Assembly (NCBI GenBank): GCA_900545275.1
Contig: UQYG01000003.1
Coordinates: 99,032 to 163,031, forward strand
DNA from: an uncultured Sutterella sp.
GTDB lineage: Bacteria > Pseudomonadota > Gammaproteobacteria > Burkholderiales > Burkholderiaceae_F
Direction: 5' to 3'
Length of the DNA: 64,000 nucleotides
In this document: positions 124-24,812 of the stretch, piece after piece
Position numbering within the stretch: position 1 is the stretch's first letter
Layout of the letters: each line of letters starts with the position of its first letter
Position numbers and translations under genes: made by a program
Notes under the pieces: model-generated
Database searches by the model: none
The model's input: the letters and a program-made list of their open reading frames with translations, nothing else
What the model was told of the DNA's origin: nothing

Positions 124-3100
124 TCAGAACAGGTAGGAGATGCCACCGGAAATTCGATAGCTTGAAGTACGGTGGTTGCCGATTTCCTTGTCCATGTCGA
201 GATGGATGAGTCCCGACTTCCCAAGGCGACCGGAAAAACCTAAACCGACGTCGAACCACGTGCCTTCATTGCGGAAGGTTTCATCCAACGTTCCAGTGAG
301 GTCGGTGGCTTTGATGTTCTGCTTTCCAAGGAACTCGTGCAAAATGTCGGCCTTGAGCCAAAGACTCCAGTCCTTCTTGTCGCCTGCGTCTTTTCCGAAG
401 ACCATGCCCGCGCGGGCAATGAGACTCGTGATGGAATCAAGTTCCACCTTGGTTTCCTGGGATGTCCTGTAGTCTGCATCCGTAACATAGGCGTATTGCA
501 ACTGAGCCTGAGGCTCGATAAACCACCCTTCGCCGTTGGCGAAATTCCTGCCGAATTCTCCGGAGATCGAGAACACGTCGTTCGAGTAATTACCGTTGAC
601 TCTTGTACCGCTCGCCTTCGTCGTGATGTCGAAGTCATTCTTCAAGTGTCCCCACTTGAAGACGAAGTCGGCATAGCTGCCGTCATCTTTGATCCACGTG
701 TCGAAAAGCCAAACTCCCCAACGATCCATTTCACCCGTTCCGTTTAGACCTTGGTAGTCGGCTTCACCGTCCATGTAGTCCACCGCGGCACCTACGCGGT
801 GTTCTCCTTCGTCGACCGCTCGACGGTAGTCATAGCCGAGTTCGACCATCGTGAGCTTGGATCGGAATGCACCAGAGATGCCGGTTCGGTCGTGGCGAGT
901 ACGAATCCACAGTCCGTCGTCGACCCCCGCTTGGAAGCGGGCATCGCCGCGACGTTGGCGCAGAGTGTCCATATGGAAGACAGCATTGGCATAGTTGGCT
1001 CGACTCATATTGAGAATGGCTTCGCCGCCTTCTGAAGTGCCGGAGCTGTGTTCCGCCGTAATCACCCAGTTGGTGCCGTCGGTGAATTTCTGATCGGCGA
1101 AATTTTCGTTGGTTTTCTCTGCGAGTTGGTTGTTGTAGTCGGCGTTTTCCGTGTCGCTGATGTCGTAGTTCTTTTGCTCCACGGTATATTCGGAGTTGTT
1201 GACGCCCAGGTCGACGACGGCAGCTGCCGTAAAGGTTAGGCCGGAAGCTTCTTTTCCAACCGTAGCAAAACGCAGGTCTTCGCCGTTTTGGATTTTCTCT
1301 AGCGTAGCTTCGTCGAGCGGGTTTTCTAGTAGTACCCGCACTTCGCCGGTGCCGGTTTCAACAAACAGCATGTCACTCTTGGCGTGATCCTCATGATTGA
1401 GATTCATGTATACCGTGAGCGGGGCGTTTTCGGTTCGAAGATTCTTCATGAAGATAAAATCCGAATCAAAATCGGTGTCTCCGGCAACGTCGCTTGCGGC
1501 ATTGTGCATGCGGATGATGCTGTTCTCGGAAGAATTGACCGTTGTGACGAAACTGTTGGCCGTGGAATTCCAAACGGCCCCTGACCCCAGGATCAGTTGC
1601 GTACCGGCATTTTCCTGATTTGCGGCGAGAACATCCTTCAGCGCATCATCGGAAACACTGCCCGTAAGCGAGCCCGTACCCAGGTCGAGAGTAATGGCCC
1701 CATAATTCTTGGAATCACTGGTTCGTGAAGTGGAAAGGTTTCCGGTCACGGCGACGGCTCGTTCTGCATCGTTCGAAACGATCTGAATGCGACCTGAGTC
1801 GCTGGCCATCACATCGCCGGTCAACGTGCTCTGATCCCCAGCATAACGAAGAAGGATCGTGCCGCCGTTTGCGTAGCCGGTGGCCTTTTGGGCTTCCAAA
1901 TTTCCGGAAACTTGCAGTTTGCCCTCAAGGTTGACGCGGGAGTTGGTGCCTGTGGCGCGGATGGCGGCCTCGTTGCCTGAAAGTTCGATTTCATCGGCTC
2001 GAACGGAAACCAACGATTCGGTTTGTAGTTTCAGGGCATCGTCCTGAATGGCGGAAATCCCCACCTCTTGACTATTGATAGTTACAAACTGAGCGGCTTG
2101 ATCGTCTGTATTTTCGATTCGGACTTCATGTCCGTTAATCATGCTGATGCCGTATTTGCTGGCGCTGATTTTGCTTGTTGCCGCAAGTAAGAAAATGCCG
2201 CCTTTCTCAAATCGTTCGTGAAACATACCAGGATCAGAGAACGAATAAAGAGTGGTCTCGTTTTTGATCCCCGTTGCAAAACTTTCAATTTCGATCTGCT
2301 GTGCGTTCAGAGTAATGTTGCCGGTTGCGTGTGCTTCCCAGATGCCAGACGTTCCACTCGTGCCTTCTTCGGCTTGCAGGAGAATTCGACGTTGGGCCGT
2401 CAGAGTAACCGTGCTGATGTCTGTGTCATCGTAGAGGGGCTGACTCTCGTCAACGTAGATTGCGTCTGAGGTGACGTTTTTGAAGATGATGTCTTGCTCA
2501 GCACGAATATCTACAGTCGCGCGCGATTGGGCCAACGAAACGGCTCTTTGGAACCCGTCAACCGTAAAATCGTAGGACTTGGCTGTGAAAGACGCTGCAG
2601 AAACAGGGCTTTGAGGGAAAGCTGGTCCGTTGATAAGGATGGCAGAACGTTTTTTGTTCGATTCATTGGTAAGAAGAATGTTCTTGCCCGCCGCAGCTTT
2701 CAATGAGAGATACCCTGCGCCGTCTTCAGTATTAAAGACGATTGCACCCAATTCTCCGGATGAACTGTGCTCCTTCATGAAATTCAGGGTAAAGTCGCCG
2801 TCAAAGGAAAGAGTAGCGTCGATACCTTCATCGTCGGCGGACTGAACGACAAAGCCGAAGCCCGTCAGTATGGCGTTTTCATCGGTGATCTGAACGTCGA
2901 CATTGCCAGTGTAAACACTATGGCGGTAATCAGCGCCGAAAATCAGACCTTGATTGGAGGTCTTGTGGTCTTGTGTTGCCAGCAGTTCTGCCAATGTGGT
3001 GGTTTCGGCTTGTGCTCCGAAAGAAGTTAAAACCAGAACGAGCGCGGTCAGGAGTGCTCGATTACGAAGGTTCCCGCGAATGGTCCTGGGCTGGATGGTA

Positions 3101-3222
3101 TTAAGGTGCGAAGGGGGGGCTATTGTCATTGATGTATTGATAGATAGAGTGAATAGAATTGTAAAATTAAGTGTGCGAGTGGCGAACGAGAATAACATCA
3201 AAAATGGGAAAAACAGATGCAA
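124..3222 (-). CDS. Autotransporter outer-membrane protein (adhesin-like passenger plus C-terminal beta-barrel translocator)
   Basis: 1032 aa ORF with N-terminal signal-like hydrophobic segment, long Ser/Thr/Gly/Asn-rich passenger, and C-terminal approx. 280 aa with alternating hydrophobic beta-strand pattern ending in ...GGISYLF (terminal aromatic), typical of type Va autotransporter beta-domains. Confidence 0.7.
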   Translation of the reverse strand: MHLFFPFLMLFSFATRTLNFTILFTLSINTSMTIAPPSHLNTIQPRTIRGNLRNRALLTALVLVLTSFGAQAETTTLAELLATQDHKTSNQGLIFGADYRHSVYTGNVDVQITDENAILTGFGFVVQSADDEGIDATLSFDGDFTLNFMKEHSSSGELGAIVFNTEDGAGYLSLKAAAGKNILLTNESNKKRSAILINGPAFPQSPVSAASFTAKSYDFTVDGFQRAVSLAQSRATVDIRAEQDIIFKNVTSDAIYVDESQPLYDDTDISTVTLTAQRRILLQAEEGTSGTSGIWEAHATGNITLNAQQIEIESFATGIKNETTLYSFSDPGMFHERFEKGGIFLLAATSKISASKYGISMINGHEVRIENTDDQAAQFVTINSQEVGISAIQDDALKLQTESLVSVRADEIELSGNEAAIRATGTNSRVNLEGKLQVSGNLEAQKATGYANGGTILLRYAGDQSTLTGDVMASDSGRIQIVSNDAERAVAVTGNLSTSRTSDSKNYGAITLDLGTGSLTGSVSDDALKDVLAANQENAGTQLILGSGAVWNSTANSFVTTVNSSENSIIRMHNAASDVAGDTDFDSDFIFMKNLRTENAPLTVYMNLNHEDHAKSDMLFVETGTGEVRVLLENPLDEATLEKIQNGEDLRFATVGKEASGLTFTAAAVVDLGVNNSEYTVEQKNYDISDTENADYNNQLAEKTNENFADQKFTDGTNWVITAEHSSGTSEGGEAILNMSRANYANAVFHMDTLRQRRGDARFQAGVDDGLWIRTRHDRTGISGAFRSKLTMVELGYDYRRAVDEGEHRVGAAVDYMDGEADYQGLNGTGEMDRWGVWLFDTWIKDDGSYADFVFKWGHLKNDFDITTKASGTRVNGNYSNDVFSISGEFGRNFANGEGWFIEPQAQLQYAYVTDADYRTSQETKVELDSITSLIARAGMVFGKDAGDKKDWSLWLKADILHEFLGKQNIKATDLTGTLDETFRNEGTWFDVGLGFSGRLGKSGLIHLDMDKEIGNHRTSSYRISGGISYLF

Positions 3223-3376: not shown

Positions 3377-4687
3377 TTAGGCCAAGCCTATGGCTTTGAG
3401 ATTCTCCGCAACCGCCGCTTCGACCTGTGCCTTCACCTCCTTGATGGTGGCGCGTTTTGCGCCGAGAGACAACGCCGTCTCGGAAAAACGGAGGGCTGCT
3501 TCGGCCGTTTGACGGACGATTTCCTCAAGCTTCTCGACGGGCGTCGCCATGAGGCGGCTCATGCGCTCAAGCGCGTCGCGCGTGATGCGCCGTCCGTTTC
3601 CTCCAAAGGACGTGGCGTGCTCTCCGTAAGGACCCGGAGCATAGGTGATGTCGAAGGAGGGCGACAATTCCCAACGTCCGCTGTCGTGAAGGAGAAAGCC
3701 GAAATTCTTCCCGTGGTCGTCTTCGTTTCTGAGGAAGTAGGAAAGAACCGCCCTTCGGAAAAGCTCCTCCATTTCCACCTGCGACTGCGTGAGCCGGTAG
3801 GTGAGTCGCATCAGGTCGAAGTAGTCGAAGACGGGTTCCCGGAAGTTGGCGTTCAAAAGTCCTGCGGCTGAGACGTAGTGAACGCGTCCTGCGGACGTCC
3901 GGTCAAAACGCTCCATCCCGAGCCAGTAAGGGACCTTGGGGCGCCCCCTTCCTTGAGGACCTTCAAAGAGTCTCCACGCGGGCGTGCGGATGCCGGCCTT
4001 CTCCGACGCAGCAAGGGCCGCGGCTTCGAAGAGTCCTTCCTCGTGGCCAAGCGGAAAGTCGGAAGCCGTGAATTTGACGAGCCAAGCCGTGGAATTTTCC
4101 TTCGGGACGAGCGAAGCGCGTGAGAAATCATCGCCGAAGAAAAGCTGCGCCTTGGGACGGGAGCCGCCCGCACTCCCGCAGGCCGTGAGTTCGACAAAGA
4201 ACTCGGTCTCCTTCCCTTCGAAAAACGTTTGGGCGGCGGCGCCAAGTTCCGCAAGGGGAAGACATTCCCGTCGTACGGCGGGCATGTCGTCTCCGGGCTC
4301 GTAGGAGAGCGCTCCGGCAGCGCGATTGCCGACAAAGGCGAGGCGGTCGAGCGGTGCGACGGCTTCCCGCGGCACGCCCGTTCTCTGAAATGCCTTGTCC
4401 ATGAGCAGGAGGCCGTAGCCGTCAGGCAGGCTTTCCGCGAGAAAACCGGGCAGTCCGGCAGGACATTTGCCCGGTGTCGGTTGGAGGGATGCGTCGTAGG
4501 GAAGCGTGAGCGGTGAAAGAGAGCCGACCGCTTCTCCGAAGGCCGCGAGGTATTCGCCGTCGTAGCGGAAGACGATGTTGCCGTTGCGATTCTCCGCGTG
4601 CCCGACCGGCACGCGGCGGCCGTCTTCGAAAGTTCGGAAAATCCGCAGATTCTTGTTCATCGCGACGCTCTTCGAAAAAATGGACAT
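3377..4687 (-). CDS. hipA: HipA-like serine/threonine kinase (type II toxin family)
   Basis: 436 aa; N-terminal HipA-N-like region (RIFRTFEDGRRVPVGH..., LSPLTLP) and length typical of HipA; alternative start at internal MNKNLRIF (approx. 4657). Confidence 0.65.
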   Translation of the reverse strand: MSIFSKSVAMNKNLRIFRTFEDGRRVPVGHAENRNGNIVFRYDGEYLAAFGEAVGSLSPLTLPYDASLQPTPGKCPAGLPGFLAESLPDGYGLLLMDKAFQRTGVPREAVAPLDRLAFVGNRAAGALSYEPGDDMPAVRRECLPLAELGAAAQTFFEGKETEFFVELTACGSAGGSRPKAQLFFGDDFSRASLVPKENSTAWLVKFTASDFPLGHEEGLFEAAALAASEKAGIRTPAWRLFEGPQGRGRPKVPYWLGMERFDRTSAGRVHYVSAAGLLNANFREPVFDYFDLMRLTYRLTQSQVEMEELFRRAVLSYFLRNEDDHGKNFGFLLHDSGRWELSPSFDITYAPGPYGEHATSFGGNGRRITRDALERMSRLMATPVEKLEEIVRQTAEAALRFSETALSLGAKRATIKEVKAQVEAAVAENLKAIGLA

Positions 4688-14633: not shown

Positions 14634-15521
14634 TCACTTCCTCTTCGCGCGCGTGAGCCGGAAAACCATGACGGCGAGGAACGCAATCCCGACGAGTTCC
14701 GCCGCGTTGAGGGTGAGCCCGAGAAGAAGCACGCCCAGGACCACCGCGGTGAGGGGCTCGAAATTGGCGAGAAGCGCCGTGGTCGGGGCCGAGATGTACG
14801 AAAGACTCTTCAGGTAACACCAGAAGGCCGCGACCGTCCCGACGGCGGCGATGTAGAAGTAGAGGGCCGTCGTGACGAAATTCCATTCCACGGCGGCGAC
14901 GTTCGGAGGATCGGCGATGCAGAGGATTGCGCCGCCGAGCGTCATGCCCCAGCCCACGACGACTCCGACCGACAAACGGGAGAGCATGCGCCTGGGTTGG
15001 ACCGTGCAGAAGGCCCCGCAGGCGGCCGAAGCAATGCCCCAGAGCACGCCGGCGGGCGAGAAGTCAAGAGTCGAGAAGTCGCCTTTGGTGACGAGAAGGG
15101 AGACGCCCGCCGTGGCGAGCGCGATCGAAATCCACTCTTCCTTCGTGACGGCGCGGCGCTCGGAATAGGCGGTCCATCCCGTGACGAAGAGCGGTCCCGT
15201 CGTCACCGTCAGCGCCGCCGTGGCGGCGTTGGCGTCTCGGATCGAGAGAAAGAAGGCGAGCTGAATCCCGAGCATCCCGAGAGCGTAGAAAACGAGGTCG
15301 CGCCGGTCCCTTCCGTCGCGAAAGGGAGCGAAGACGTCTTCCCGCAGGACGAAGGCTTCGAGCGCAAGAAGAACGCCCGCTCCCGTGAGACGAAGGGCGG
15401 TGAGGTCGACCGCGTCAAACGCGACCGACTCCATGAGGTATTGCGCGGCAATGCTCATGGAACCCCAGAAGACGCTGGCGGCCGAAGCGAGCGCAATGCC
15501 GAGGACGGAGCGCGAAAGCAT
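14634..15521 (-). CDS. DMT superfamily (EamA-like) transporter
   Basis: ORF 14634..15620; likely start MLSRSVLG at 15521; approx. 10 hydrophobic segments, EamA-like pattern. Confidence 0.7.
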   Translation of the reverse strand: MLSRSVLGIALASAASVFWGSMSIAAQYLMESVAFDAVDLTALRLTGAGVLLALEAFVLREDVFAPFRDGRDRRDLVFYALGMLGIQLAFFLSIRDANAATAALTVTTGPLFVTGWTAYSERRAVTKEEWISIALATAGVSLLVTKGDFSTLDFSPAGVLWGIASAACGAFCTVQPRRMLSRLSVGVVVGWGMTLGGAILCIADPPNVAAVEWNFVTTALYFYIAAVGTVAAFWCYLKSLSYISAPTTALLANFEPLTAVVLGVLLLGLTLNAAELVGIAFLAVMVFRLTRAKRK

Positions 15522-15783
15522 GAGAAAGTCTCTCGAAGAATGAATGAAAAGCGGGAAATGGGCCCTTCGACGTGAGCGTCGAGAATCCGAGACAGTGTAG
15601 CACTGCCGTGCAGGCGGCAAAACCTTGTCGCGTACGGGATTGGGAGAAGGATGAGGAAAGTTGGAGAGGAAACGAAGGGAGGGTAAAGTGGTAACTGCGC
15701 AACAAAATTCTGTAGGAGGGTTTTGTGATGAAATTGACTACTTCTACAACGGATTGCGGGATAAAGTTAGGGTAAACCAGTAT

Positions 15784-15793
15784 GGGGGGGGGG
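15784..15793. promoter_or_regulatory. Homopolymeric G10 tract about 160 bp upstream of porin 1 start, inside a duplicated porin 5' region
   Basis: tatGGGGGGGGGGtaaaag; homologous block upstream of porin 4 carries G7 (20754..20760). Confidence 0.5.
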
Positions 15794-15949
15794 TAAAAGA
15801 TGTGAAAACATGCCTTTGTCCGAACGGCAAAGAAGTCTCTCTCCTGAAGGCAAGCGGGGGAAGGCGGCCGTACCGGATGCGGGATCCGGCGATCCATTCC
15901 ATTCCCGTCGGATCCCATTTCACAGATCAGACTTATACAGAAAAGGTAA

Positions 15950-17134
15950 TTGAACATGTTCAAGAAGTCTCTGATTGCTGTCGCCGCCCTCAGCGCCCTC
16001 GCCGGCTCCGCCATGGCTGCTGACGTCACGATCTACGGTCGTATCGACACGGGCTTCCGTTATCAAAACGTCGACTACGACGTCGCCGGTGTTGACGATG
16101 ACTCCTCGTTTGGGATGGTTTCCGGCAACTACACGGGTAGCCGCGTCGGCATCAAGGGTTCGGAAGACCTCGGCAACGGCCTGACGGTTGGTTTCGTTCT
16201 CGAAAACGGTTTTGACTCCGACGACGGTTCGTTCGACTCGAACGAAGAACTCTTCGGCCGTGAAGCGCTCCTCTATCTCGAAGGCGATTTCGGTAAGGTC
16301 GGTTTCGGCCGCATGGGCATCCTCAACAGCACGGCCGGTTCGTTCGCCATCGGCAACTTCACGCCGTGGGGTACGGGTTGGGGTTCCGTCGGTGACCAGT
16401 CCCTTATCTTCGGCGCCAACATTGGCAACCGTTGGGACAACATGATCTCCTATCGTTCGCCTGAATTCGCCGGCTTCCAGATTCATGCTCAGTACTCCTT
16501 CGGTGCGAATACCGATACGGATGAAGATAAGCTTGCTAAGGAAGGCAAGACCACGACCGACCGTTACTATGCCATCGGCGCCACGTACAAGGTCGGCGGT
16601 TTGAACTTGATCGGTATCGTTGATTCGATTAATGAAAAGCATCAGCCTGGAACGGCAACTGCTCCGACGGAAGATCCTGACGACACGCTTCGCGTGACGA
16701 TCGGTGGTTCTTATGACTTTGGCGTTGTGAAGCCCTATGTGTCGGCGGCCTACTTCAAGGATGCCCGCATGAAGAGCTGGTTGAGCGCTTATTCGAAAGG
16801 TCCTCAAACTACGACTGCCAATCTCAACGGCGACTGGGACGGTTACGGCGTGATTCTCGGTGCTTCCGCTCCGCTCGTTGGTGGCAAGGCCCACATGACG
16901 ATCGGTTACATGGATGCTGAAGCTCAGGACTTTATGTATGGTGCCACCGAAATCGGCGCCGACTTGAAGCGCTATACGTTCGCTGTCGGCTACGAATATC
17001 CGCTCAGCAAGCGCACCACGGTTTACGCTGACGCCGGCTACTTCAAGGATGAAATGGACTACGGCACGGAAGGTTGGGAAAGCCGCGAACCGGAAGGCTA
17101 CCAGGCTGCCGTCGGTCTCGTTCACTACTTCTAA
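15950..17134 (+). CDS. Outer-membrane porin (betaproteobacterial/Neisseria-type general porin), paralog 1
   Basis: 394 aa; signal peptide MNMFKKSLIAVAALSALAGSAMAADVTIYGR, Gly/Asp/Tyr-rich beta-barrel pattern, C-terminal ...GLVHYF. Confidence 0.9.
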   Translation: MNMFKKSLIAVAALSALAGSAMAADVTIYGRIDTGFRYQNVDYDVAGVDDDSSFGMVSGNYTGSRVGIKGSEDLGNGLTVGFVLENGFDSDDGSFDSNEELFGREALLYLEGDFGKVGFGRMGILNSTAGSFAIGNFTPWGTGWGSVGDQSLIFGANIGNRWDNMISYRSPEFAGFQIHAQYSFGANTDTDEDKLAKEGKTTTDRYYAIGATYKVGGLNLIGIVDSINEKHQPGTATAPTEDPDDTLRVTIGGSYDFGVVKPYVSAAYFKDARMKSWLSAYSKGPQTTTANLNGDWDGYGVILGASAPLVGGKAHMTIGYMDAEAQDFMYGATEIGADLKRYTFAVGYEYPLSKRTTVYADAGYFKDEMDYGTEGWESREPEGYQAAVGLVHYF

Positions 17135-17566
17135 TCAGCGTTTGAGCGGGTGTTTAAACGCCTGATCTAACCTGATGAAAGGGCCCTCTCCGAGGAATCG
17201 GCGGGGGCTCTTGTTTTGAGGTAGAGAGGGCGGAGTGAACTTTTTACAACAAAATTTGTTGCAAATCGTTTTGATTGCAACAGTAAGGGAAAAAATGCGC
17301 CTCTCGAGAATTTAAGGGTTATCACCTAGAGGACGGAGGGCGGGCCGTATGAGAGCATGGTCCCGCCTGAGTAGGTGAGGGAACTTCAGGTTCACCGGGT
17401 GCTTGCCAATTTCCCGGGAAAGTCACCGCAAGGGTTGCGACAGATTCCTGATCAACAGGCTACGAAAATCTGTCGATCGGAATGACGGACTTTTCATAGA
17501 GCGAAAGTCCGGCGAAGACACGCCAAGTCCTTCGCCTATTACAACTTATCTTCTAAACATTAAGGA

Positions 17567-18790
17567 ATGGAAATGTTGAAGAAGTCTCTGCTTGCTATTG
17601 CGACCATCGGCGCTTTTGCCGGTTCTGCGGTCGCTGCCGACGTCACCGTTTACGGTTTGGTTGACTACGGCTTTAACTATCAGCACGTTGATGCTGATAT
17701 CCAGGGTGTCGATGCTCAGGACAACTTTGAAATGCGCTCGGGCATGAACTCCGGTTCGCGCTTCGGCTTCAAGGGCTCTGAAGATCTCGGCAATGGTCTG
17801 ACGGTCGGCTTCGTTCTCGAAAACGGTTTCGATGCCGATTCGGGCAATCTCGGCTATGACGGCCGCATCTTCGGTCGTGAATCTCAGGTCTATCTGAGCG
17901 GCAACTTCGGTACCGTCTCCTTTGGTCGTATGGGTCAGCTCGCTAGCGCCAACGGCACCTACGGTCTCCTGAACGGCGACTTCTCGCCCTTCTCTGGCGG
18001 TTGGGCTGATTCGGTTGGTGCGAAGTTCCTCTTCGCCACGGGTTATGCCCGTTACGACAATACGATCACCTACAAGTCCCCTGAATTTGCCGGCCTGAAC
18101 GTTTTTGCTCAGTACTCGTTCGAAAACGACAGCGTCACGGACGGTGCAGGCAACGGTGACGAAGGCAAGAGCAATACCGACCGCTACTACGGTATTGGCG
18201 CCAAGTACAAGAACGGCAACCTTGCTTTGGTAGGTATCGTCGACCAGGTCAACTACCGTACGGAAGGCAACAACGAAGACCAGCTCACGGGCACCCTCGG
18301 TGCTTCGTATGACTTCGGTGTTGTGAAGACCTATCTCCTTGGCCAGTACTTCAAGGACGCTCGCAACGTCGGTCAGAAGTCTGCCATGGCTGGTGAAACG
18401 TTCTTGGGTTACAAGATTGGCTCTAGCGGCTACGGCACCTTTACGGACGGTGATCGTACTCTGAATGCCGCTATGGAAGGCTACGGTTTGGCTCTTGGTG
18501 CCAGCGTTCCGGCGTTTGGAGGTTCCTTCCTCGGCCAGATCGGTTACATGGATGCCGACAATGACAATGGCGATTACGGTGTTGAACTCGGCACTGAAGT
18601 CAAGCGTTGGAACGTCACCCTTGGTTACACCTATAACCTCAGCAAGCGTACGAGCGTGTATGCGGCAGCTGCCTACACGAAGGACGACGTGACCTTCAAC
18701 ACCCAGAATGCCGACAATAGCGTCAAGGATTCGGCTAATTACGACCCGACCCGTACGGAAGTCGTTGCCGGCTTGATCCACAAGTTCTAA
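17567..18790 (+). CDS. Outer-membrane porin, paralog 2
   Basis: 407 aa; signal peptide, ADVTVYGLVDYGFNYQ..., C-terminal ...GLIHKF; RBS region near-identical to paralog 3. Confidence 0.9.
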   Translation: MEMLKKSLLAIATIGAFAGSAVAADVTVYGLVDYGFNYQHVDADIQGVDAQDNFEMRSGMNSGSRFGFKGSEDLGNGLTVGFVLENGFDADSGNLGYDGRIFGRESQVYLSGNFGTVSFGRMGQLASANGTYGLLNGDFSPFSGGWADSVGAKFLFATGYARYDNTITYKSPEFAGLNVFAQYSFENDSVTDGAGNGDEGKSNTDRYYGIGAKYKNGNLALVGIVDQVNYRTEGNNEDQLTGTLGASYDFGVVKTYLLGQYFKDARNVGQKSAMAGETFLGYKIGSSGYGTFTDGDRTLNAAMEGYGLALGASVPAFGGSFLGQIGYMDADNDNGDYGVELGTEVKRWNVTLGYTYNLSKRTSVYAAAAYTKDDVTFNTQNADNSVKDSANYDPTRTEVVAGLIHKF

Positions 18791-18837
18791 TCGACTTGTT
18801 TCATCCTAAGACGGACTTTTCTTAACGGAAAATCCCG

Positions 18838-18872
18838 GCGGAGGAAGGTCTGACGGCCTTCCTCCGCTTTTC
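18838..18872 (+). terminator. Rho-independent terminator between porin 2 and porin 3
   Basis: gcggaggaagg-tctgacgg-ccttcctccgc followed by ttttctc. Confidence 0.6.
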
Positions 18873-18894: not shown

Positions 18895-20073
18895 ATGGAA
18901 ATGTTTAAGAAGTCTATTGCTGCTTTGGCTGTTCTCGGCGCCTTTGCCGCCGGTTCCGCCGTGGCCGCGGACGTCACGATCTATGGTCGTGCCGACCTCG
19001 GTCTTCGTTTTACGAGCGTCGATTCCGACATGGCTGGAGTTGACGACGTTGATACGTTCGAAATGGCTACCGGCAACTACACCGGCAACCGCGTTGGTAT
19101 CAAGGGACAGGAAGAACTCGGTAACGGCATGACGGTTGCCTTCGTTCTCGAAAACGGTTTTGATGTCGACTCCGGCAACCTCGGTGAATCGGATCAGATC
19201 TTCGACCGTGAAGCCACGCTTCAGTTGAAGGGAGCTTTCGGTACGATCGGCATGGGGCGCTCCTCGATCCTCGCTGCCGATTCCGGCTCCTTTGGTATCG
19301 GCGGTGCCTTCTCCGCCTTTGGTACGGGTTGGGGCGACGTCGGCAATCAGCACCTCCTCTGGGGGGCTGGCTACAGCTCGCGTGTCAACAACATGCTGAC
19401 GTACGTCACGCCGGAATTCGCCGGGTTCAAGGTTTACGCTCAGTACTCCTTCGGTAACGGAGACGGTGACGAAAACAAGTCCAACATCGAACGTTACTAC
19501 GGTATCGGTGCCACCTATAAGAACGGTGCTCTCGATCTCGCCATGGTCGTTGACAGCATCAATGCTGCAACCGTTAAATACAATGAAGACGGTGATCGTA
19601 CCGGCGTGAAGGGAAATCCGGAAGACACGGTTCGCGTGATCGCCGGTGGTTCGTATGACTTTGGCGTCGTCAAGCCCTATCTCTCTGCCGCCTACTTTAA
19701 GGACGGCAAAGTTGGCGACCTTCTTGGCGCCCATGAAAATGCCGGTTTGGATGACGGTCTTGGCTGGTACTACGACGGTTGGGCCGTGATGCTCGGCACG
19801 GACGTTCCCGCCTTCGGCGGAACGTTTAAGGCCTCTCTCGGTTACATGGACGCTGAGTTCCAGGCTACGGAAGATCGTGAAGAGCAGGCCGGCGACCAGA
19901 ACGACATCACCCGTTGGATGGTCGGTCTCGGCTATTCGTATCCGCTCTCGAAGCGCACGGTGGTCTACGCCGATGCCGGTTACTTCAAGGATGACGTCGA
20001 CGCGGGCGGCGAAACCTACGACCGCAAGCCGAGTGCTTATCAGTGCGCTGTCGGTCTTGTCCACATGTTCTAA
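18895..20073 (+). CDS. Outer-membrane porin, paralog 3
   Basis: 392 aa; signal peptide, same family, C-terminal ...GLVHMF. Confidence 0.9.
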   Translation: MEMFKKSIAALAVLGAFAAGSAVAADVTIYGRADLGLRFTSVDSDMAGVDDVDTFEMATGNYTGNRVGIKGQEELGNGMTVAFVLENGFDVDSGNLGESDQIFDREATLQLKGAFGTIGMGRSSILAADSGSFGIGGAFSAFGTGWGDVGNQHLLWGAGYSSRVNNMLTYVTPEFAGFKVYAQYSFGNGDGDENKSNIERYYGIGATYKNGALDLAMVVDSINAATVKYNEDGDRTGVKGNPEDTVRVIAGGSYDFGVVKPYLSAAYFKDGKVGDLLGAHENAGLDDGLGWYYDGWAVMLGTDVPAFGGTFKASLGYMDAEFQATEDREEQAGDQNDITRWMVGLGYSYPLSKRTVVYADAGYFKDDVDAGGETYDRKPSAYQCAVGLVHMF

Positions 20074-20110: not shown

Positions 20111-20144
20111 GAGAGCCCCTTCCGATTCGTCGGAAGGGGCTCTC
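20111..20144 (+). repeat. Conserved hairpin element downstream of porin 3 (homolog downstream of porin 4 at approx. 22209..22243 and porin 1 at approx. 17190..17225)
   Basis: gagagccccttccg-attcgt-cggaaggggctctc; similar taatcagc..cacctgacat.agctga..hairpin blocks after porins 1, 3, 4. No strong U-tract, so terminator function uncertain. Confidence 0.4.
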
Positions 20145-20753
20145 AACGTATTGGAACACCTCTTTCTCCTCTCCGGATTCCATAGCGCTCTCCGCGCGAA
20201 CTCTTCGTCTCATCTCCTTCAAAAACTCCCCGGGTTACTTCTCAATGGAGCGCCCCGGTCCAAATCGTCCGGTCGACGATTACGAGTACACCCCTCACCA
20301 CCTTCGCAGCCCGGCAAAAGAGTTTGTTTTCGAAAAGGGCGTTCCGATAAGAAAGCTCCACCGAGACATTTGAAACGAAATCTCGCAGACGTCAAGCGTC
20401 GGAAAGCGCCCAAGAAAGATCTTCGCCGTATGCGCGGGGACGAGCGCGACGCGGTCGGAAAAGAGCAGGTACTGCGGGACTTCCTCGCAGTTCGCCGTCG
20501 TCACGTGCATCTGTAGCCTGTCAGCGAACTGCCGCGTCAACCCCCTGTGCCGCTCCCAAGGCTCGCCATGGTAGGTGCTGCACGGGACCTCACTGCGCAT
20601 GCCGCGGTTTTCGAGTCGACTCCGTCGCTCAACACAATACGTCAGCTTCCTGTGCGTGTGGCAATTGTGCAACAAAGACTAGTGTCTGGAAGGGTGGTTG
20701 TTTTCTCATAGTGTCACTAGCCATTTTGATCTTTGTTTGGGGTAAACCCCTAT

Positions 20754-20760
20754 GGGGGGG
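20754..20760. promoter_or_regulatory. Homopolymeric G7 tract in duplicated porin 5' region upstream of porin 4
   Basis: ggggtaaacccctatGGGGGGGtaagacatgtgaaaacatgcc, homologous to block at 15775..15950. Confidence 0.5.
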
Positions 20761-20911
20761 TAAGACATGTGAAAACATGCCCTCATCCGAACGGCAGGCA
20801 AGTCTCGCAAGTAACGGCAAGCACGAGTGAGACGCCGTAAGGATGGGGGATCCGATGCATTCCATTCCCGTCGGATCCCGTTTTTCAGATCAGACATGAC
20901 AAAAAAGGATA

Positions 20912-22171
20912 TTGAACATGTTCAAGAAGTCTCTGATTGCTGTCGCTGCCCTCGGCGCCTTCGCTGGCTCGGCCATGGCTGCGGACATCTCGATCTCCGG
21001 TCGTATCGACACGGGGCTCAATTTTCACGACGAAGAAGTGAAGGTTGGTGGTGAAACGACGGTCGACCAAAACACCTTCCAGATGAAGTCCGGTCAGTAT
21101 TCCGGTTCTCGTATCACCATCAAGGGTTCGGAAGAACTCGGCAACGGCATGAAGGCCGGTTTCATTCTTGAAAACGGCTTCGACGCTGATGACGGTACGT
21201 TTGACTCCAACGGCGATGACAAGATGTTTGGCCGTGAAGCCATCGTTTACCTGGAAGGTGGCTTTGGTCATTTCTCCATGGGCCGTGTCGGTGCCCTGTC
21301 GTCGGGTCTCGGTTCCTACAACGTCGTCTACGGTTACACGCCGTGGGGCACGGGTTGGGGTGATTATGCCGGCAATAAGGGGCAGTTCATGCTCGGCGAT
21401 CGTGGTCGTATGAACAATACTCTCACTTATCGCTCGCCTGAATTCGCTGGCGTTCAGATCTTTGCGCAGTACTCTCTTGAAGCTGATGCGCAGGAAGACG
21501 AACAGTCCGGCAACAATAAGCGCTACGCTGCTTTGGGTGCTTCGTACAATCTCGGAGCCTTTAGCACGGGTCTCGTGGTCGACACCGTGATGAATGGCAA
21601 TGATGACGCTAGCCGCAATACGGAAGACTCCTTCGGTGTGTCGTGGGGTGCTTCGTATGACTTCGGCGTTACGAAGCCTATGATTTTGGTTCAGTACGGC
21701 AAGAACGAGAACAAGCTCGGCGGCTTCTCGGCAACTGGCTTCTACGAAGACTACTTCACCGACGACAAGTTCCGTTTGGGCAAGAACGAAGGTCTGAAGG
21801 GCTACGCGATCTCGCTTGGTGCCGTCACGCCTCTCTTCGGAGGTAATCTCTATACCTCCGTGAACTTCACGGACGGCGAGTTTGACGGAGATGTTCACAA
21901 CCAGAAGAACAAGAATCACGGAGTCCCGGGTGCAGACGCCAATTGGGTTGACGGTGCTCGTTACTTCAACGGCGACATCCAGCGTTGGGGCGTTGCGGTC
22001 GGTTACGACTATCCGCTCTCCAAGCGCACCAAGCTTTATGGTTACGCTGCCTACAACGAAGGCGAACTTAAAGGCAACGAAGTTCGTCCCAACAAGCCGG
22101 GGCTGAGCAGCAGTGGCAAGATCGAAGAAACCGACATGGAAGCCGGTGTTGGCCTGATCCACTACTTCTAA
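20912..22171 (+). CDS. Outer-membrane porin, paralog 4
   Basis: 419 aa; MNMFKKSLIAVAALGAFAGSAMAADISISGR..., C-terminal ...GLIHYF; 5' UTR block homologous to porin 1. Confidence 0.9.
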   Translation: MNMFKKSLIAVAALGAFAGSAMAADISISGRIDTGLNFHDEEVKVGGETTVDQNTFQMKSGQYSGSRITIKGSEELGNGMKAGFILENGFDADDGTFDSNGDDKMFGREAIVYLEGGFGHFSMGRVGALSSGLGSYNVVYGYTPWGTGWGDYAGNKGQFMLGDRGRMNNTLTYRSPEFAGVQIFAQYSLEADAQEDEQSGNNKRYAALGASYNLGAFSTGLVVDTVMNGNDDASRNTEDSFGVSWGASYDFGVTKPMILVQYGKNENKLGGFSATGFYEDYFTDDKFRLGKNEGLKGYAISLGAVTPLFGGNLYTSVNFTDGEFDGDVHNQKNKNHGVPGADANWVDGARYFNGDIQRWGVAVGYDYPLSKRTKLYGYAAYNEGELKGNEVRPNKPGLSSSGKIEETDMEAGVGLIHYF

Positions 22172-23597
22172 TCAGCCTTTGACCGGGTGTCTCTCGCACC
22201 TGACATAAGCTGAGGTGAGCCTCGTCCGATTCGTCGGGCGGGGCTCTCTACGTTTTGAAAAGTTGCGCCCGTCAAAATTTCGTCTCTCGCAATCTTTCTC
22301 GTCTCAGCCAAAGATCGACTCTTCTTCGTTCAGGGAACGCCGCTTTTAGATCATCCCGTTCCGGTTCGAGGGCATCCTCCTCAGAACTTTCGCCACCTTC
22401 CGGCACTGGTCCTTCTTGGGACAGCATGTTACGGCAGGCACGCTCTGCCAAATCCCACAAGCATCGAGCATCAGGAAGAGGAAGTGGAAAATTCCTGTCG
22501 TGCGGGCTGTGCAGACGAGGGCGATGCCAAGATCTTCCTCGCAGTTTGATCCTGTCAGCTTCACCTGCAGCGGGTCGTCGAACCGCGGCGACAATCGCCC
22601 TCATCACTCCGATGGTTTCGTCGCAGTGGGCCGCCGCACGGAACCTCGACGCGCCGCGTTGCAGTCACCGGGTTCGGCCTCGTTGAAACAAGTCGACTCG
22701 GCGAGCACCATATTTCTTGCAACATCTCCCGGTTTGGAATGTTCGGCATCAACGATCGCGTCGTGTTCGTAGGAAGCTCTTCTCCTGCGGACTCCGATGC
22801 GGAAACGATTCGGCGTCAAACCCTTTTCCTATGGTTGACGGAGGAGGGGAGCTTTTGACTCCACGGAGAACCCCGGCGGGAGTTGCCTGTGATCGGTACG
22901 CCGGGCCCTGAGAGAGAATCCTCACGACGTTCGGAAAACGGTAGACGATTCTCTCCACGTCCTCACGTCTGCGCGTTCCGCCAGACGATCGGGATCTCGT
23001 GGGCGGAGCGTGCCGCAGCGGAGCGGATCGACAGAGAAGCCACGGATTTGCGGCAACGCCGCCCTGTTCTTCATCGAAGGTTGCGCGAGATTCACATCGA
23101 CGACACGCTTCGCTCCAACACTCGACGCCGAGAAGAACATCAAGGTCGCCGCAGGGAAACATCGTCATGACTGGCAACATCCGTTGCGTTTTTCTTCGGA
23201 AGCCCGGCGGAATCGTCGGTTGTTTGCAAAATTCTTTCGATTGCCGGTGGAAAAATGAACAACAGGTTGATTTTACAGGGAGGGTGTGGTGATTTTTATT
23301 TCTTCTCCTGCAGGGTATGTGGTGTGAATACGTAAAAATTCGTGTGAATTGGATTTTGCGCCACAGTTTTTTGTGGACCGTTTTTCGATCCTTTCTCTTC
23401 CCCTGCGGGCGTTTCTCCAAAAAGTGCGGTAAAAATCGTTTTCAGGGGGTGCGGAATGCATGTGAGAGCATGAGCCAAGCCCAAACGGGGAGGTCCGCGA
23501 ATCGGCGCGCAATGTCGCGGGCATCCTCTCCGGGGGCGTCAACAAAGGGTTCCGCCGCTCGTTTGGACGGGACCGTCAACCTCAGAAAGGACAAGAC

Positions 23598-24812
23598 ATG
23601 TTCAAGAAGTCGCTCATCGCGCTCGTTACGCTTTCCGCCGCGGCCTTTGCCGCCAACGCCGCCGACGTCACCCTCTCGGGCCGCATCGACGCGGGTCTCA
23701 ACTATCACGACGCCAAGAAGACGGGTCACGAATCGACCGACACGTTCGCCATGAAGTCGGGCCAGTACTCGGGTTCGCGCTTTACGCTCAAGGGTTCGGA
23801 AGAACTCGGCAACGGCACGTCCGTGGGTTTCGTTCTCGAAAACGGCTTTGATTCCGACACCGGCGCCTTCTCGCAGGAAGGCAAGATCTTCGGCCGCGAA
23901 GCCATCGTCTACGTGAAGGGTGAATTCGGTACCTTCGCCATGGGCCGCGTCGGCGCTCTTTCGTCCGGCCTCGGCTCCTTCAGCACCATTTACAACTACA
24001 CCCCCTTCGGCACGGGTTGGGGCGACTACGCCGGCGCCAAGGACGCCTTCATGCTCGCCGACCGCGGCCGCAACGACAACACCATCACCTACGTGTCGCC
24101 GGAATTTGCGGGTCTCACGATTTCCGCTCAGTATTCGCTTCGCACGGACGGCGCCGAAGCCGATCATTCGTCCTTGAACAAGCGCTACGCCGCCTTGGGC
24201 GCCACCTACAAGCTCGGCGCCTTCGGCACGGGCCTCGTGGTGGACACGGTCATGAACGGCCGCGCAGACGATTCCTACAACACGGAAGACTCCCTGGGCA
24301 TTTCCTGGGGCGCTTCGTTTGACCTCGACGTCACGAAGCCGATGATCCTCGTTCAGTACGGTCAGCATGAAAACAAGCTCGGCGGCTTCAACTTCGCTCA
24401 GATGCTTTCGGACTACAGCGACGAAGATCATCCCTATGCGGCTTCCCGCAACGGCGGTCTGAAGGGTTATGCCGTGTCGCTCGGCGCAGTTACGCCGGTC
24501 ATGGGCGGCAACCTTTACACGGCCGTCAACTACACGGACGGCGAACTCGACGGCCGCGCCTACGGCGTGAACTTTAAGGACGACAAACGCGGCGATGAAG
24601 CCGGCTACGTTTCGGCCGACGTCAAGCGTTGGGGCTTTGCCATGGGTTACGACTATCCGCTCTCCAAGCGCACCACGGTCTACGGCTTCGCCGCCTACAA
24701 CCAGGGCGACATCAAGGGTTCGCTCTACGCCATGGACGGCAAGCCCGGCAATTCCGGCAAGCTGAAGGAAAAGGACACCGAAGTCGGCTTCGGCATCCTC
24801 CACTGCTTCTAA
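23598..24812 (+). CDS. Outer-membrane porin, paralog 5
   Basis: 404 aa; signal peptide, most similar to paralog 4 (GSEELGNG, VVDTVMNG), C-terminal ...GILHCF. Confidence 0.9.
   Translation: MFKKSLIALVTLSAAAFAANAADVTLSGRIDAGLNYHDAKKTGHESTDTFAMKSGQYSGSRFTLKGSEELGNGTSVGFVLENGFDSDTGAFSQEGKIFGREAIVYVKGEFGTFAMGRVGALSSGLGSFSTIYNYTPFGTGWGDYAGAKDAFMLADRGRNDNTITYVSPEFAGLTISAQYSLRTDGAEADHSSLNKRYAALGATYKLGAFGTGLVVDTVMNGRADDSYNTEDSLGISWGASFDLDVTKPMILVQYGQHENKLGGFNFAQMLSDYSDEDHPYAASRNGGLKGYAVSLGAVTPVMGGNLYTAVNYTDGELDGRAYGVNFKDDKRGDEAGYVSADVKRWGFAMGYDYPLSKRTTVYGFAAYNQGDIKGSLYAMDGKPGNSGKLKEKDTEVGFGILHCF

Follow-up and report, generated by a model that had tools for sequence, protein, structure and literature searches.

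We suggest that two poly-G tracts, located upstream of two of the five tandem porin genes in the genome of an uncultured gut Sutterella, form a probable contingency locus operated by repeat slippage. The tracts are hypermutable and conserved at the same time, which is the signature of such a locus, and they occupy a constant position relative to conserved sequence motifs. On balance, and with confidence somewhat better than even, we favour the explanation that they are hypermutable repeats kept in the core promoters of two out of five porin paralogues, where slippage would tune transcription.

The window, meaning here the entire 64,000-nt stretch that was analysed, carries the following array of porin genes:

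15956–17134 (+): porin 1 gene, 392 aa, Porin_4 (E = 8.6e-52)
17567–18790: porin 2, Porin_4 paralogue by Pfam match
18895–20073: porin 3, Porin_4 paralogue by Pfam match
20918–22171 (+): porin 4 gene, 417 aa, Porin_4 (E = 1.4e-42)
23598–24812: porin 5, Porin_4 paralogue by Pfam match

All five paralogues match the Porin_4 profile over its full length with 147–177 bits, against a curated cut-off of 27, and share 42–55% identity with each other; the cluster comprises five of them, not four. The genes proposed to be controlled by the tracts encode a surface-exposed product, as indicated by the Porin_4 match and a signal-peptide-like N terminus. Relatives of the porin 1 protein came only from Sutterella and its allies, the best of them being 84% identical (uncultured Sutterella), with further ones in S. 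seckii, Candidatus Sutterella merdavium and Duodenibacillus. DNA matches were all derived from human-gut metagenomes.

The two tracts are located as follows:

15784–15793 (+): poly-G tract of porin 1, G10, hypermutable simple sequence repeat, 7–11 in homologous contigs
20754–20760 (+): poly-G tract of porin 4, G7

The surrounding sequence is gtatGGGGGGGGGGtaaaagATGTGAAAACATGcc at 15780–15814 and ctatGGGGGGGtaagacATGTGAAAACATGcc at 20750–20781. Both tract lengths and coordinates agree exactly with the sequence-only reading, which had further placed the tracts about 150–160 bp from the ATG; the porin 4 tract lies 158–164 nt from the ATG at 20918, and the porin 1 tract slightly further away than proposed (163–172 nt from the ATG at 15956). 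A motif that it had reported near the tracts was recovered as well: ATGTGAAAACATGCC occurs exactly downstream of both (15800–15814 and 20767–20781, preceded by g in porin 1 and by c in porin 4), and has no other mismatch-free copy in the window. The same is true of the homology it had proposed between the two upstream blocks, with identities of 74% in a segment of 86 nt, 91% in one of 43 nt and 86% in one that crosses the start codon. Between the encoded proteins, identity is only 43–46%. Since both upstream blocks are homologous, the tracts are of common descent and cannot be regarded as independent coincidences.

Long G/C runs are scarce in the window as a whole (59% G+C), with three runs of at least 7 observed against ~8 expected under a first-order Markov model, and a single run of at least 10 against 0.11 expected under the same model. 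Two of the three long runs take up homologous positions in the duplicated block, which spans from GGGTAAACC to the signal-peptide codons. At G10 and G7 in the window and 7–11 in relatives, the tracts are within the range of about 7–8 or more G/C bases in which frequent slippage can occur.

Tract length was compared in two sets of related contigs, one encoding a porin 1 or porin 4 protein identical to that of the window, and the other obtained by a metagenome scan with both flanks in which any sequence was allowed in between. Combined, these gave 28 usable sequences, with L002, L008 and L040 not counted as independent as they represent the window's own contig (scaffold_22, sample ERZ28578045; 0 substitutions in L002 and L008). 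A scan for the exact pattern of tract plus both flanks, using one genome per species, returned no match. The G-rich segment was present in 28/28 sequences with a span of 7–11 positions, distributed as follows:

7 positions: 3 sequences
8 positions: 6 sequences
9 positions: 7 sequences
10 positions: 10 sequences
11 positions: 2 sequences

It consisted of a pure G run in 24 of the 28, of a G run following one A or T in three (among them L023 and L026, with A or T and then G7), and was interrupted in one (GAGGGAGGG in L037). Length heterogeneity, which the sequence-only reading had put forward as the check to be made, was found between samples: contigs with identical porin proteins carry G9 or G10 upstream of porin 1, and G7, G8 or G9 upstream of porin 4.

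Pairwise comparisons of close relatives single out the tract in the same way. Only 3 substitutions in 4.25 kb distinguish contigs L005 and L006, and their sole internal indel is G7 versus G8; the window differs from L001 by 16 substitutions, with G10 versus G9 as the sole internal indel; and L007 and L009, separated by 51 substitutions, have G7 and G9, respectively, and no other internal indel. Runs of 5–6 bases in the same contigs were unchanged between near-identical strains. When placed on a tree of the flanks (28 sequences), tract length changed at least 15 times, compared to 1.74 changes for the average flanking site and 8 for the most variable one. The tract is thus by far the fastest-changing character of the region, and its repeat number varies far faster than the flanks, recurrently and among close strains. 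At the same time it is kept although the porin 1 proteins concerned are only 63–92% identical to that of the window, and in L018, another Sutterella, a G10 tract is found at the same place upstream of a porin that is only 57% identical. A run of this type is also visible in the spacer of porin 2-type genes (homologous to 17336–17349), where minus-strand genes have a G7 run in L021 (position 7958) and a G6 run in L027 (position 5061); the two spacers differ in length by one base, at the same promoter position as the tracts of porins 1 and 4.

The sequence downstream of the tracts is suggestive of a promoter, in that the motif ATGTGAAAACATG fits the extended -10 element TGn-nAnnAT. The candidate elements, assigned from conservation and alignment, are:

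15803–15811 (+): candidate extended -10 of porin 1, TG at 15803–15804, one base, AAACAT at 15806–15811
20770–20778 (+): candidate extended -10 of porin 4, TG at 20770–20771, AAACAT at 20773–20778
15782–15787 (+): putative -35 position of porin 1, ATGGGG, colinear with ATGACG / AGGACG of porin 2
15788–15805 (+): putative spacer of porin 1, 18 nt
20752–20757 (+): putative -35 position of porin 4, ATGGGG
20758–20772 (+): putative spacer of porin 4, 15 nt
17330–17358 (+): homologous promoter region of porin 2, no homopolymer, AGGACG at 17330–17335 and a 17-nt G-rich spacer
17350–17358 (+): candidate extended -10 of porin 2, TG at 17350–17351, GAGCAT at 17353–17358
23463–23471 (+): homologous extended -10 of porin 5, TGaGAGCAT, after a G5 run
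15770–15778 (+): GGGTAAACC box of porin 1, at about -48 to -40
20740–20748 (+): GGGTAAACC box of porin 4
15696–15713 (+): TGCGCAACAAAATTCTGT motif, ~85 nt upstream of the porin 1 tract, candidate regulator binding site
20665–20677, 17247–17261 and 23257–23266: counterparts of the TGCGCAACAAAATTCTGT motif, candidate sites

Across paralogue classes and species the TG, the A at hexamer position 2 (A-11) and the AT at positions 5–6 (A-8, T-7) never change, being invariant among the 39 unique upstream sequences, which represent four paralogue classes and L018; the matches behind this count were picked by the pattern itself, and every homologous upstream region had one. Variation is confined to the n position and to hexamer positions 1, 3 and 4, giving TGaAAACAT in porins 1 and 4, TGaAAATAT in L013, TGgAAAGAT in L022, TGaGAGCAT, TGcGAGCAT and TGaGAACAT in porin 2 types, TGaGAGCAT and TGcGAGGAT in porin 5 types, and TGcAAAGAT in L018. 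In the sigma-70 extended -10 consensus, TGnTATAAT, it is the TG, the A of hexamer position 2 and the final AT that matter most, and the positions seen to vary here are the tolerant ones.

This conserved footprint lies 12 nt downstream of the tract, with the 9 nt between tract and TG variable in sequence and constant in length, in a region colinear with the 17-nt-spacer promoter of porin 2. In promoters of the tract-less porin 2 type, exactly 17 nt separate ATGACG, ATGGCG or ATGGCA from the hexamer further downstream, and porins 1 and 4 are colinear with them at the G9 allele. This would place tATGGGG at the -35 position and the other Gs in the first part of the spacer, so that spacer length equals the G count plus 8; the predicted spacer is then 16–18 nt long in 23 of the 28 alleles. 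Read 5' to 3', the alignment passes from a variable A+T-rich zone through a sharp onset of conservation at GGGTAAACC to the tract, the 9 length-constant bases and the motif. Nowhere in the intergenic region is the A+T content higher than in the 80 nt preceding the tract (35–45% G+C, 15700–15780). Together these features make a promoter location of the tract plausible, with transcription predicted to start ~7 nt past the -10, at ~15818 for porin 1 and ~20785 for porin 4.

The candidate promoter is weak, its hexamer having no T at -12 and its -35 being poor. A sigma-70 consensus scan of the region returned no plus-strand site, and an E. coli-type matrix gave no score above shuffled controls in six upstream regions. 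It may be that the promoter needs an activator, for which the GGGTAAACC box and the CAACAAAA(TTTTGT) motif, each present upstream of all paralogues, are candidate sites. The box occurs as GGGTTATCACC in porin 2, GGGTTTATCC in L018 and GGGTAAACC in Duodenibacillus (L015), and may act as an upstream activator or UP-like element or, alternatively, as the -35 of another register, TAAACC-N17-AAAGAT. The distance from this GGGT box to the -10 ranges from 30 to 36 nt among paralogues and follows no strict spacing rule. The second register (TAAACC or TTTATC, 17 nt, AAAGAT at G10) is an equally good fit for porin 1 and L018 and also puts the tract in the spacer; it does not fit porin 2 or porin 5. Further upstream, the partly palindromic motif at 15696–15713 is found in the form CAACAAAA(TTTTGT) or (T)GCAACAAA(ATTTTGT) upstream of every porin paralogue, as well as in front of porin genes from other Sutterella (L013, L016, L018). 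A TTGGCA / GTGACA-like hexamer precedes it, the TGCGCAACAAAATTCTGT site is in part a palindrome, ACAAAATTTTGT, in relatives, and the motif may be a binding site for a porin-family regulator.

Several other candidates were considered and set aside. The top matrix matches, TAAAGT (-272, porin 1) and TAAATT (-209, L018), are unconserved in the alignment. A -10 at TAGGGT / AAGGGT within the GGGTAAACC box, which would start transcription just before the tract, has no -35 at a workable distance, and neither porin 4 (TGGGGT) nor porin 5 has a fitting hexamer. Four Logan contigs from different runs (L004, L010, L011 and L012) begin exactly 1 nt before a porin ATG; this was rejected as a transcript end and is an assembly artefact, explained by a 36-nt stretch identical in porins 1 and 4 which breaks 31-mer assemblies.

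We propose the following mechanism. TGaAAACAT would serve as an extended -10, with transcription starting ~7 nt downstream of it, and tATGGGG at the 5' edge of the tract would occupy the -35 position, the remaining Gs filling the upstream part of the spacer. Slipped-strand mispairing during replication would add or remove Gs, and each change in G count would alter the spacing and helical phase of the -35, the GGGTAAACC box and the CAACAAAA operator-like site relative to the -10. As a result, the transcription of one porin could go up or down irrespective of its paralogues. With G10 and an 18-nt spacer, porin 1 is predicted to be expressed in this genome, and for porin 4, with G7 and 15 nt, the prediction is low or no expression. 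The sequence-only reading had likewise proposed phase variation at the promoter, and to this we can add the observed between-strain variation in length and a plausible promoter location; the effect on expression is inferred, as is a role in adaptive bet-hedging under antibody, phage or permeability pressure.

The third long G/C run of the window belongs to a second locus:

3113–3119 (-): poly-C tract, C7 on the coding strand, codons 4–6 of the autotransporter gene
124–3129 (-): autotransporter gene, 1001 aa, ATG at 3129, end at 124

The context of this tract is ATGACAATAGCCCCCCCTTCG. Contigs carrying an identical neighbouring HipA gene were compared, and C7 with the full 1001-aa frame was found in the window's own contig and in L043, from one other sample, while C11, with the frame broken, was found in L041 and L042, from two other samples. 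The tract therefore varies in the manner of an intragenic frameshift-type switch, in frame at C7 and out of frame at C11, and is likely an on/off contingency locus. Thus, each of the three long G/C runs of the window is found at the 5' end of an outer-membrane protein gene and differs from sample to sample, which supports the view that homopolymer slippage is used here as a switch. A broader possibility, to which we would commit only tentatively, is that gut Sutterella keep a set of G/C-homopolymer contingency loci made up of porin promoter tracts and autotransporter tracts, with the porin tract replacing the -35 of an extended -10 promoter. The gene immediately upstream of the autotransporter gene (3377–4687, -) encodes a HipA-like kinase toxin with HipA_C and Couple_hipA domains.

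Downstream of the predicted starts, the following RNA features can be recognised:

15818–15955 (+): predicted 5' untranslated leader of porin 1, ~138 nt, highly conserved
20785–20917 (+): predicted 5' untranslated leader of porin 4
15881–15891 and 15906–15916: arms of an 11-bp leader hairpin of porin 1, with the porin 4 counterpart at approximately 20846–20879

The porin 1 leader folds better than shuffled sequences (z = -2.2). Across 25 sequences its 11-bp hairpin, GGGATCCGGCG ... CGTCGGATCCC, is maintained, the only changes being G-U wobbles, and it may serve to stabilise the mRNA or as a target of regulation. Rfam covariance models had no match window-wide at the gathering threshold, nor within 15650–16000 at E up to 1. 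A G-quadruplex would at best be a weak four-run arrangement, made up of a single run and one GGG.

The tract could also act at the level of RNA. If transcription started upstream of it, the G run could form the 5' arm of a stem, pairing with the pyrimidine-rich GCCYTYRTCC around a AUGUGAAAACAUG loop to serve as a 5' stabiliser or binding site, and changes in its length would alter one arm only, with little or a post-transcriptional effect. RNAalifold does pair the tract with the downstream pyrimidine-rich segment, where C/U changes keep G-C or G-U pairs; the same topology has the lowest energy in each of the five paralogue classes, the tract-less porin 2 (GGCGGG / CCCGCC) among them, and the G-richness of the segment is kept even without a homopolymer. 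However, single z-scores are weak (-0.6 to -2.2), and the fold signal is gone once the tract region is added to the leader (z of -0.28 versus -2.2 for the leader alone). Two-sided changes were seen at no pair, and the pairing of cognate arms is not better than that of arms exchanged between paralogue classes, giving no signal of co-evolution, while L025 and L038 contain a G-A mismatch and the L022 variant disrupts the inner stem. Further to that, there is no convincing promoter upstream, the conserved loop bases coincide with the key bases of the extended -10, and no Rfam match supports the structure, all of which makes the stem quite an improbable explanation. We consider a neutral mutational hotspot to be unlikely as well, if to be taken a little more seriously. 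In that case a G-rich segment is what the promoter or leader needs, and the homopolymer, present by chance in porins 1 and 4, slips mutationally, with lengths between 7 and 11 being tolerated and no selected switch. G runs of 8 or more are indeed intrinsically unstable, paralogues 2 and 5 manage without a long tract, interrupted or substituted alleles exist (L037, L023 and L026, as above), and extended -10 promoters tolerate poor -35 regions. Against this, a pure tract of at least 7 is found in 27 of the 28 sequences and in a distant species despite divergent porins (63–100% range), and it is retained in a window depleted of long G/C runs. The lengths are centred on a predicted spacer of 17–18 nt, and the other long G/C tract of the window is, by all appearances, the on/off switch of a gene for a surface protein.

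Two further explanations fare worse. A sigma-70 promoter on the minus strand (TTCACA at 15806–15801, 16 nt, CATACT at 15784–15779), containing the tract as poly-C in the spacer, would point towards the divergent EamA transporter gene (14634–15521) and transcribe this gene or an antisense RNA, either by itself or in overlap with the porin promoter. The scan found no other sigma-70 consensus match (9/12) near the tract, and the -10 of this one becomes CATAAT in L035. Such an arrangement would resemble the one reportedly described by van Ham in 1993 for Haemophilus influenzae hifA/hifB, where a TA repeat is said to lie in the shared spacer of overlapping divergent promoters, in that the plus- and minus-strand promoter candidates of Sutterella overlap the tract; unlike there, the repeat is not a dinucleotide, and the minus-strand promoter is weakly supported. 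Two such matches in the region compare with 2.9 expected by chance, the final T of the -10 is lost in most lineages (CATAGA, CATAGG, CATAAG), the porin 4 spacer would be 13 nt, and the conserved block extends towards the porin gene and not towards EamA, so that we regard this promoter as very improbable. Least credible of all is an assembly or sequencing artefact, in the form of homopolymer miscalls in short-read metagenome assemblies. Many of the differences amount to a single G, and the assemblies come from different pipelines. Some of the single-G differences could be consensus errors. Yet the range of 7–11 is too wide and recurs in every sub-lineage; between near-identical strains, no variation is seen in shorter runs of these contigs, and the autotransporter tract differs by 4 bases.

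The slippage-tuned promoter that we favour has close parallels elsewhere. In the Neisseria opc gene, a poly-C tract overlaps the -35 position, as is proposed here for the Sutterella tract. The poly-G tract of Neisseria meningitidis porA lies between -35 and -10 and gives graded expression; as in Sutterella, a homopolymer of ~9–11 Gs is located in the core promoter of a major porin, with slippage changing the -35 to -10 spacing (PMC3639595). Sutterella differs in being a gut commensal (Sutterellaceae) in which two of five tandem paralogues carry the tract, and its porin is of the Porin_4 family and not a PorA orthologue. Its promoter also appears to be of the extended -10 type with almost no -35, and both its start and the expression effect are predictions.

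In the spirochaete Treponema pallidum, poly-G tracts in the promoters of tpr (putative porin) genes and of tp0126 (an OmpW homologue) set promoter activity through their length, with the optimum for tp0126 at a 17-nt -35 to -10 spacing (bioRxiv 10.1101/2020.09.28.316414). These tracts are 7–12 long and, as in Sutterella, lie upstream of several paralogous outer-membrane protein genes; unlike the tpr start, which is 4 nt after the tract, the predicted Sutterella start is ~25 nt downstream. Within the same order, Burkholderiales, Bordetella has a C-stretch in the fim promoter and coding-region tracts in autotransporters, and a single-base change in the former alters transcript level (PMC1891110). 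The fim2, fim3 and fimX genes of Bordetella pertussis / bronchiseptica likewise have a G/C homopolymer between an activator site and the -10, and the tracts in the tcfA and bapC autotransporters parallel the C7/C11 tract at 3113–3119. The fim genes encode fimbrial subunits activated by BvgA, unlike the porin targets in Sutterella, where the upstream activator site is only a candidate.

Full-text literature searches turned up no account of phase variation by repeats in Sutterella. The tracts are probably a slippage switch of the Neisseria/Bordetella kind, as yet undescribed in this gut commensal. Sutterella is a common human commensal, and porins are among the most abundant surface proteins, serving for the entry of nutrients, bile salts and antibiotics, as phage receptors and as targets of secretory antibody. 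The picture of phase variation in the gut has so far been dominated by inverting promoters and epigenetic switches. If true, our proposal would give each of the tract-bearing porin paralogues a heritable and reversible volume control, with single cells expressing different combinations of major outer-membrane proteins and heterogeneity built into the Sutterella population of the gut. It would also be the first case of repeat-based phase variation for a prevalent commensal gut betaproteobacterium. Metagenomes give direct access to tract lengths, which makes the hypothesis inexpensive to test and would allow tract states to be tracked within hosts over time.

Some further observations concern the surroundings of the porin genes. 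The window contains no tRNA or tmRNA genes. Downstream of porin 3 (20113–20156) and porin 4 (22217–22260) lie terminator-like G+C-rich hairpins that are 84% identical to each other, and a third terminator-like hairpin (18837–18868) is located between porins 2 and 3, ~30 nt before the ribosome-binding region of porin 3. With a hairpin at this point, expression of porin 3 may depend on read-through from porin 2. The intergenic region between porins 4 and 5 (22255–23420) has at least 6 indels compared to other strains. A called gene of 288 aa without a Pfam match is present in L005 (3144–4010), where the window (22255–23420) has an open frame of 223 aa, and the gene between porin 4 and porin 5 may thus be decaying or variable.
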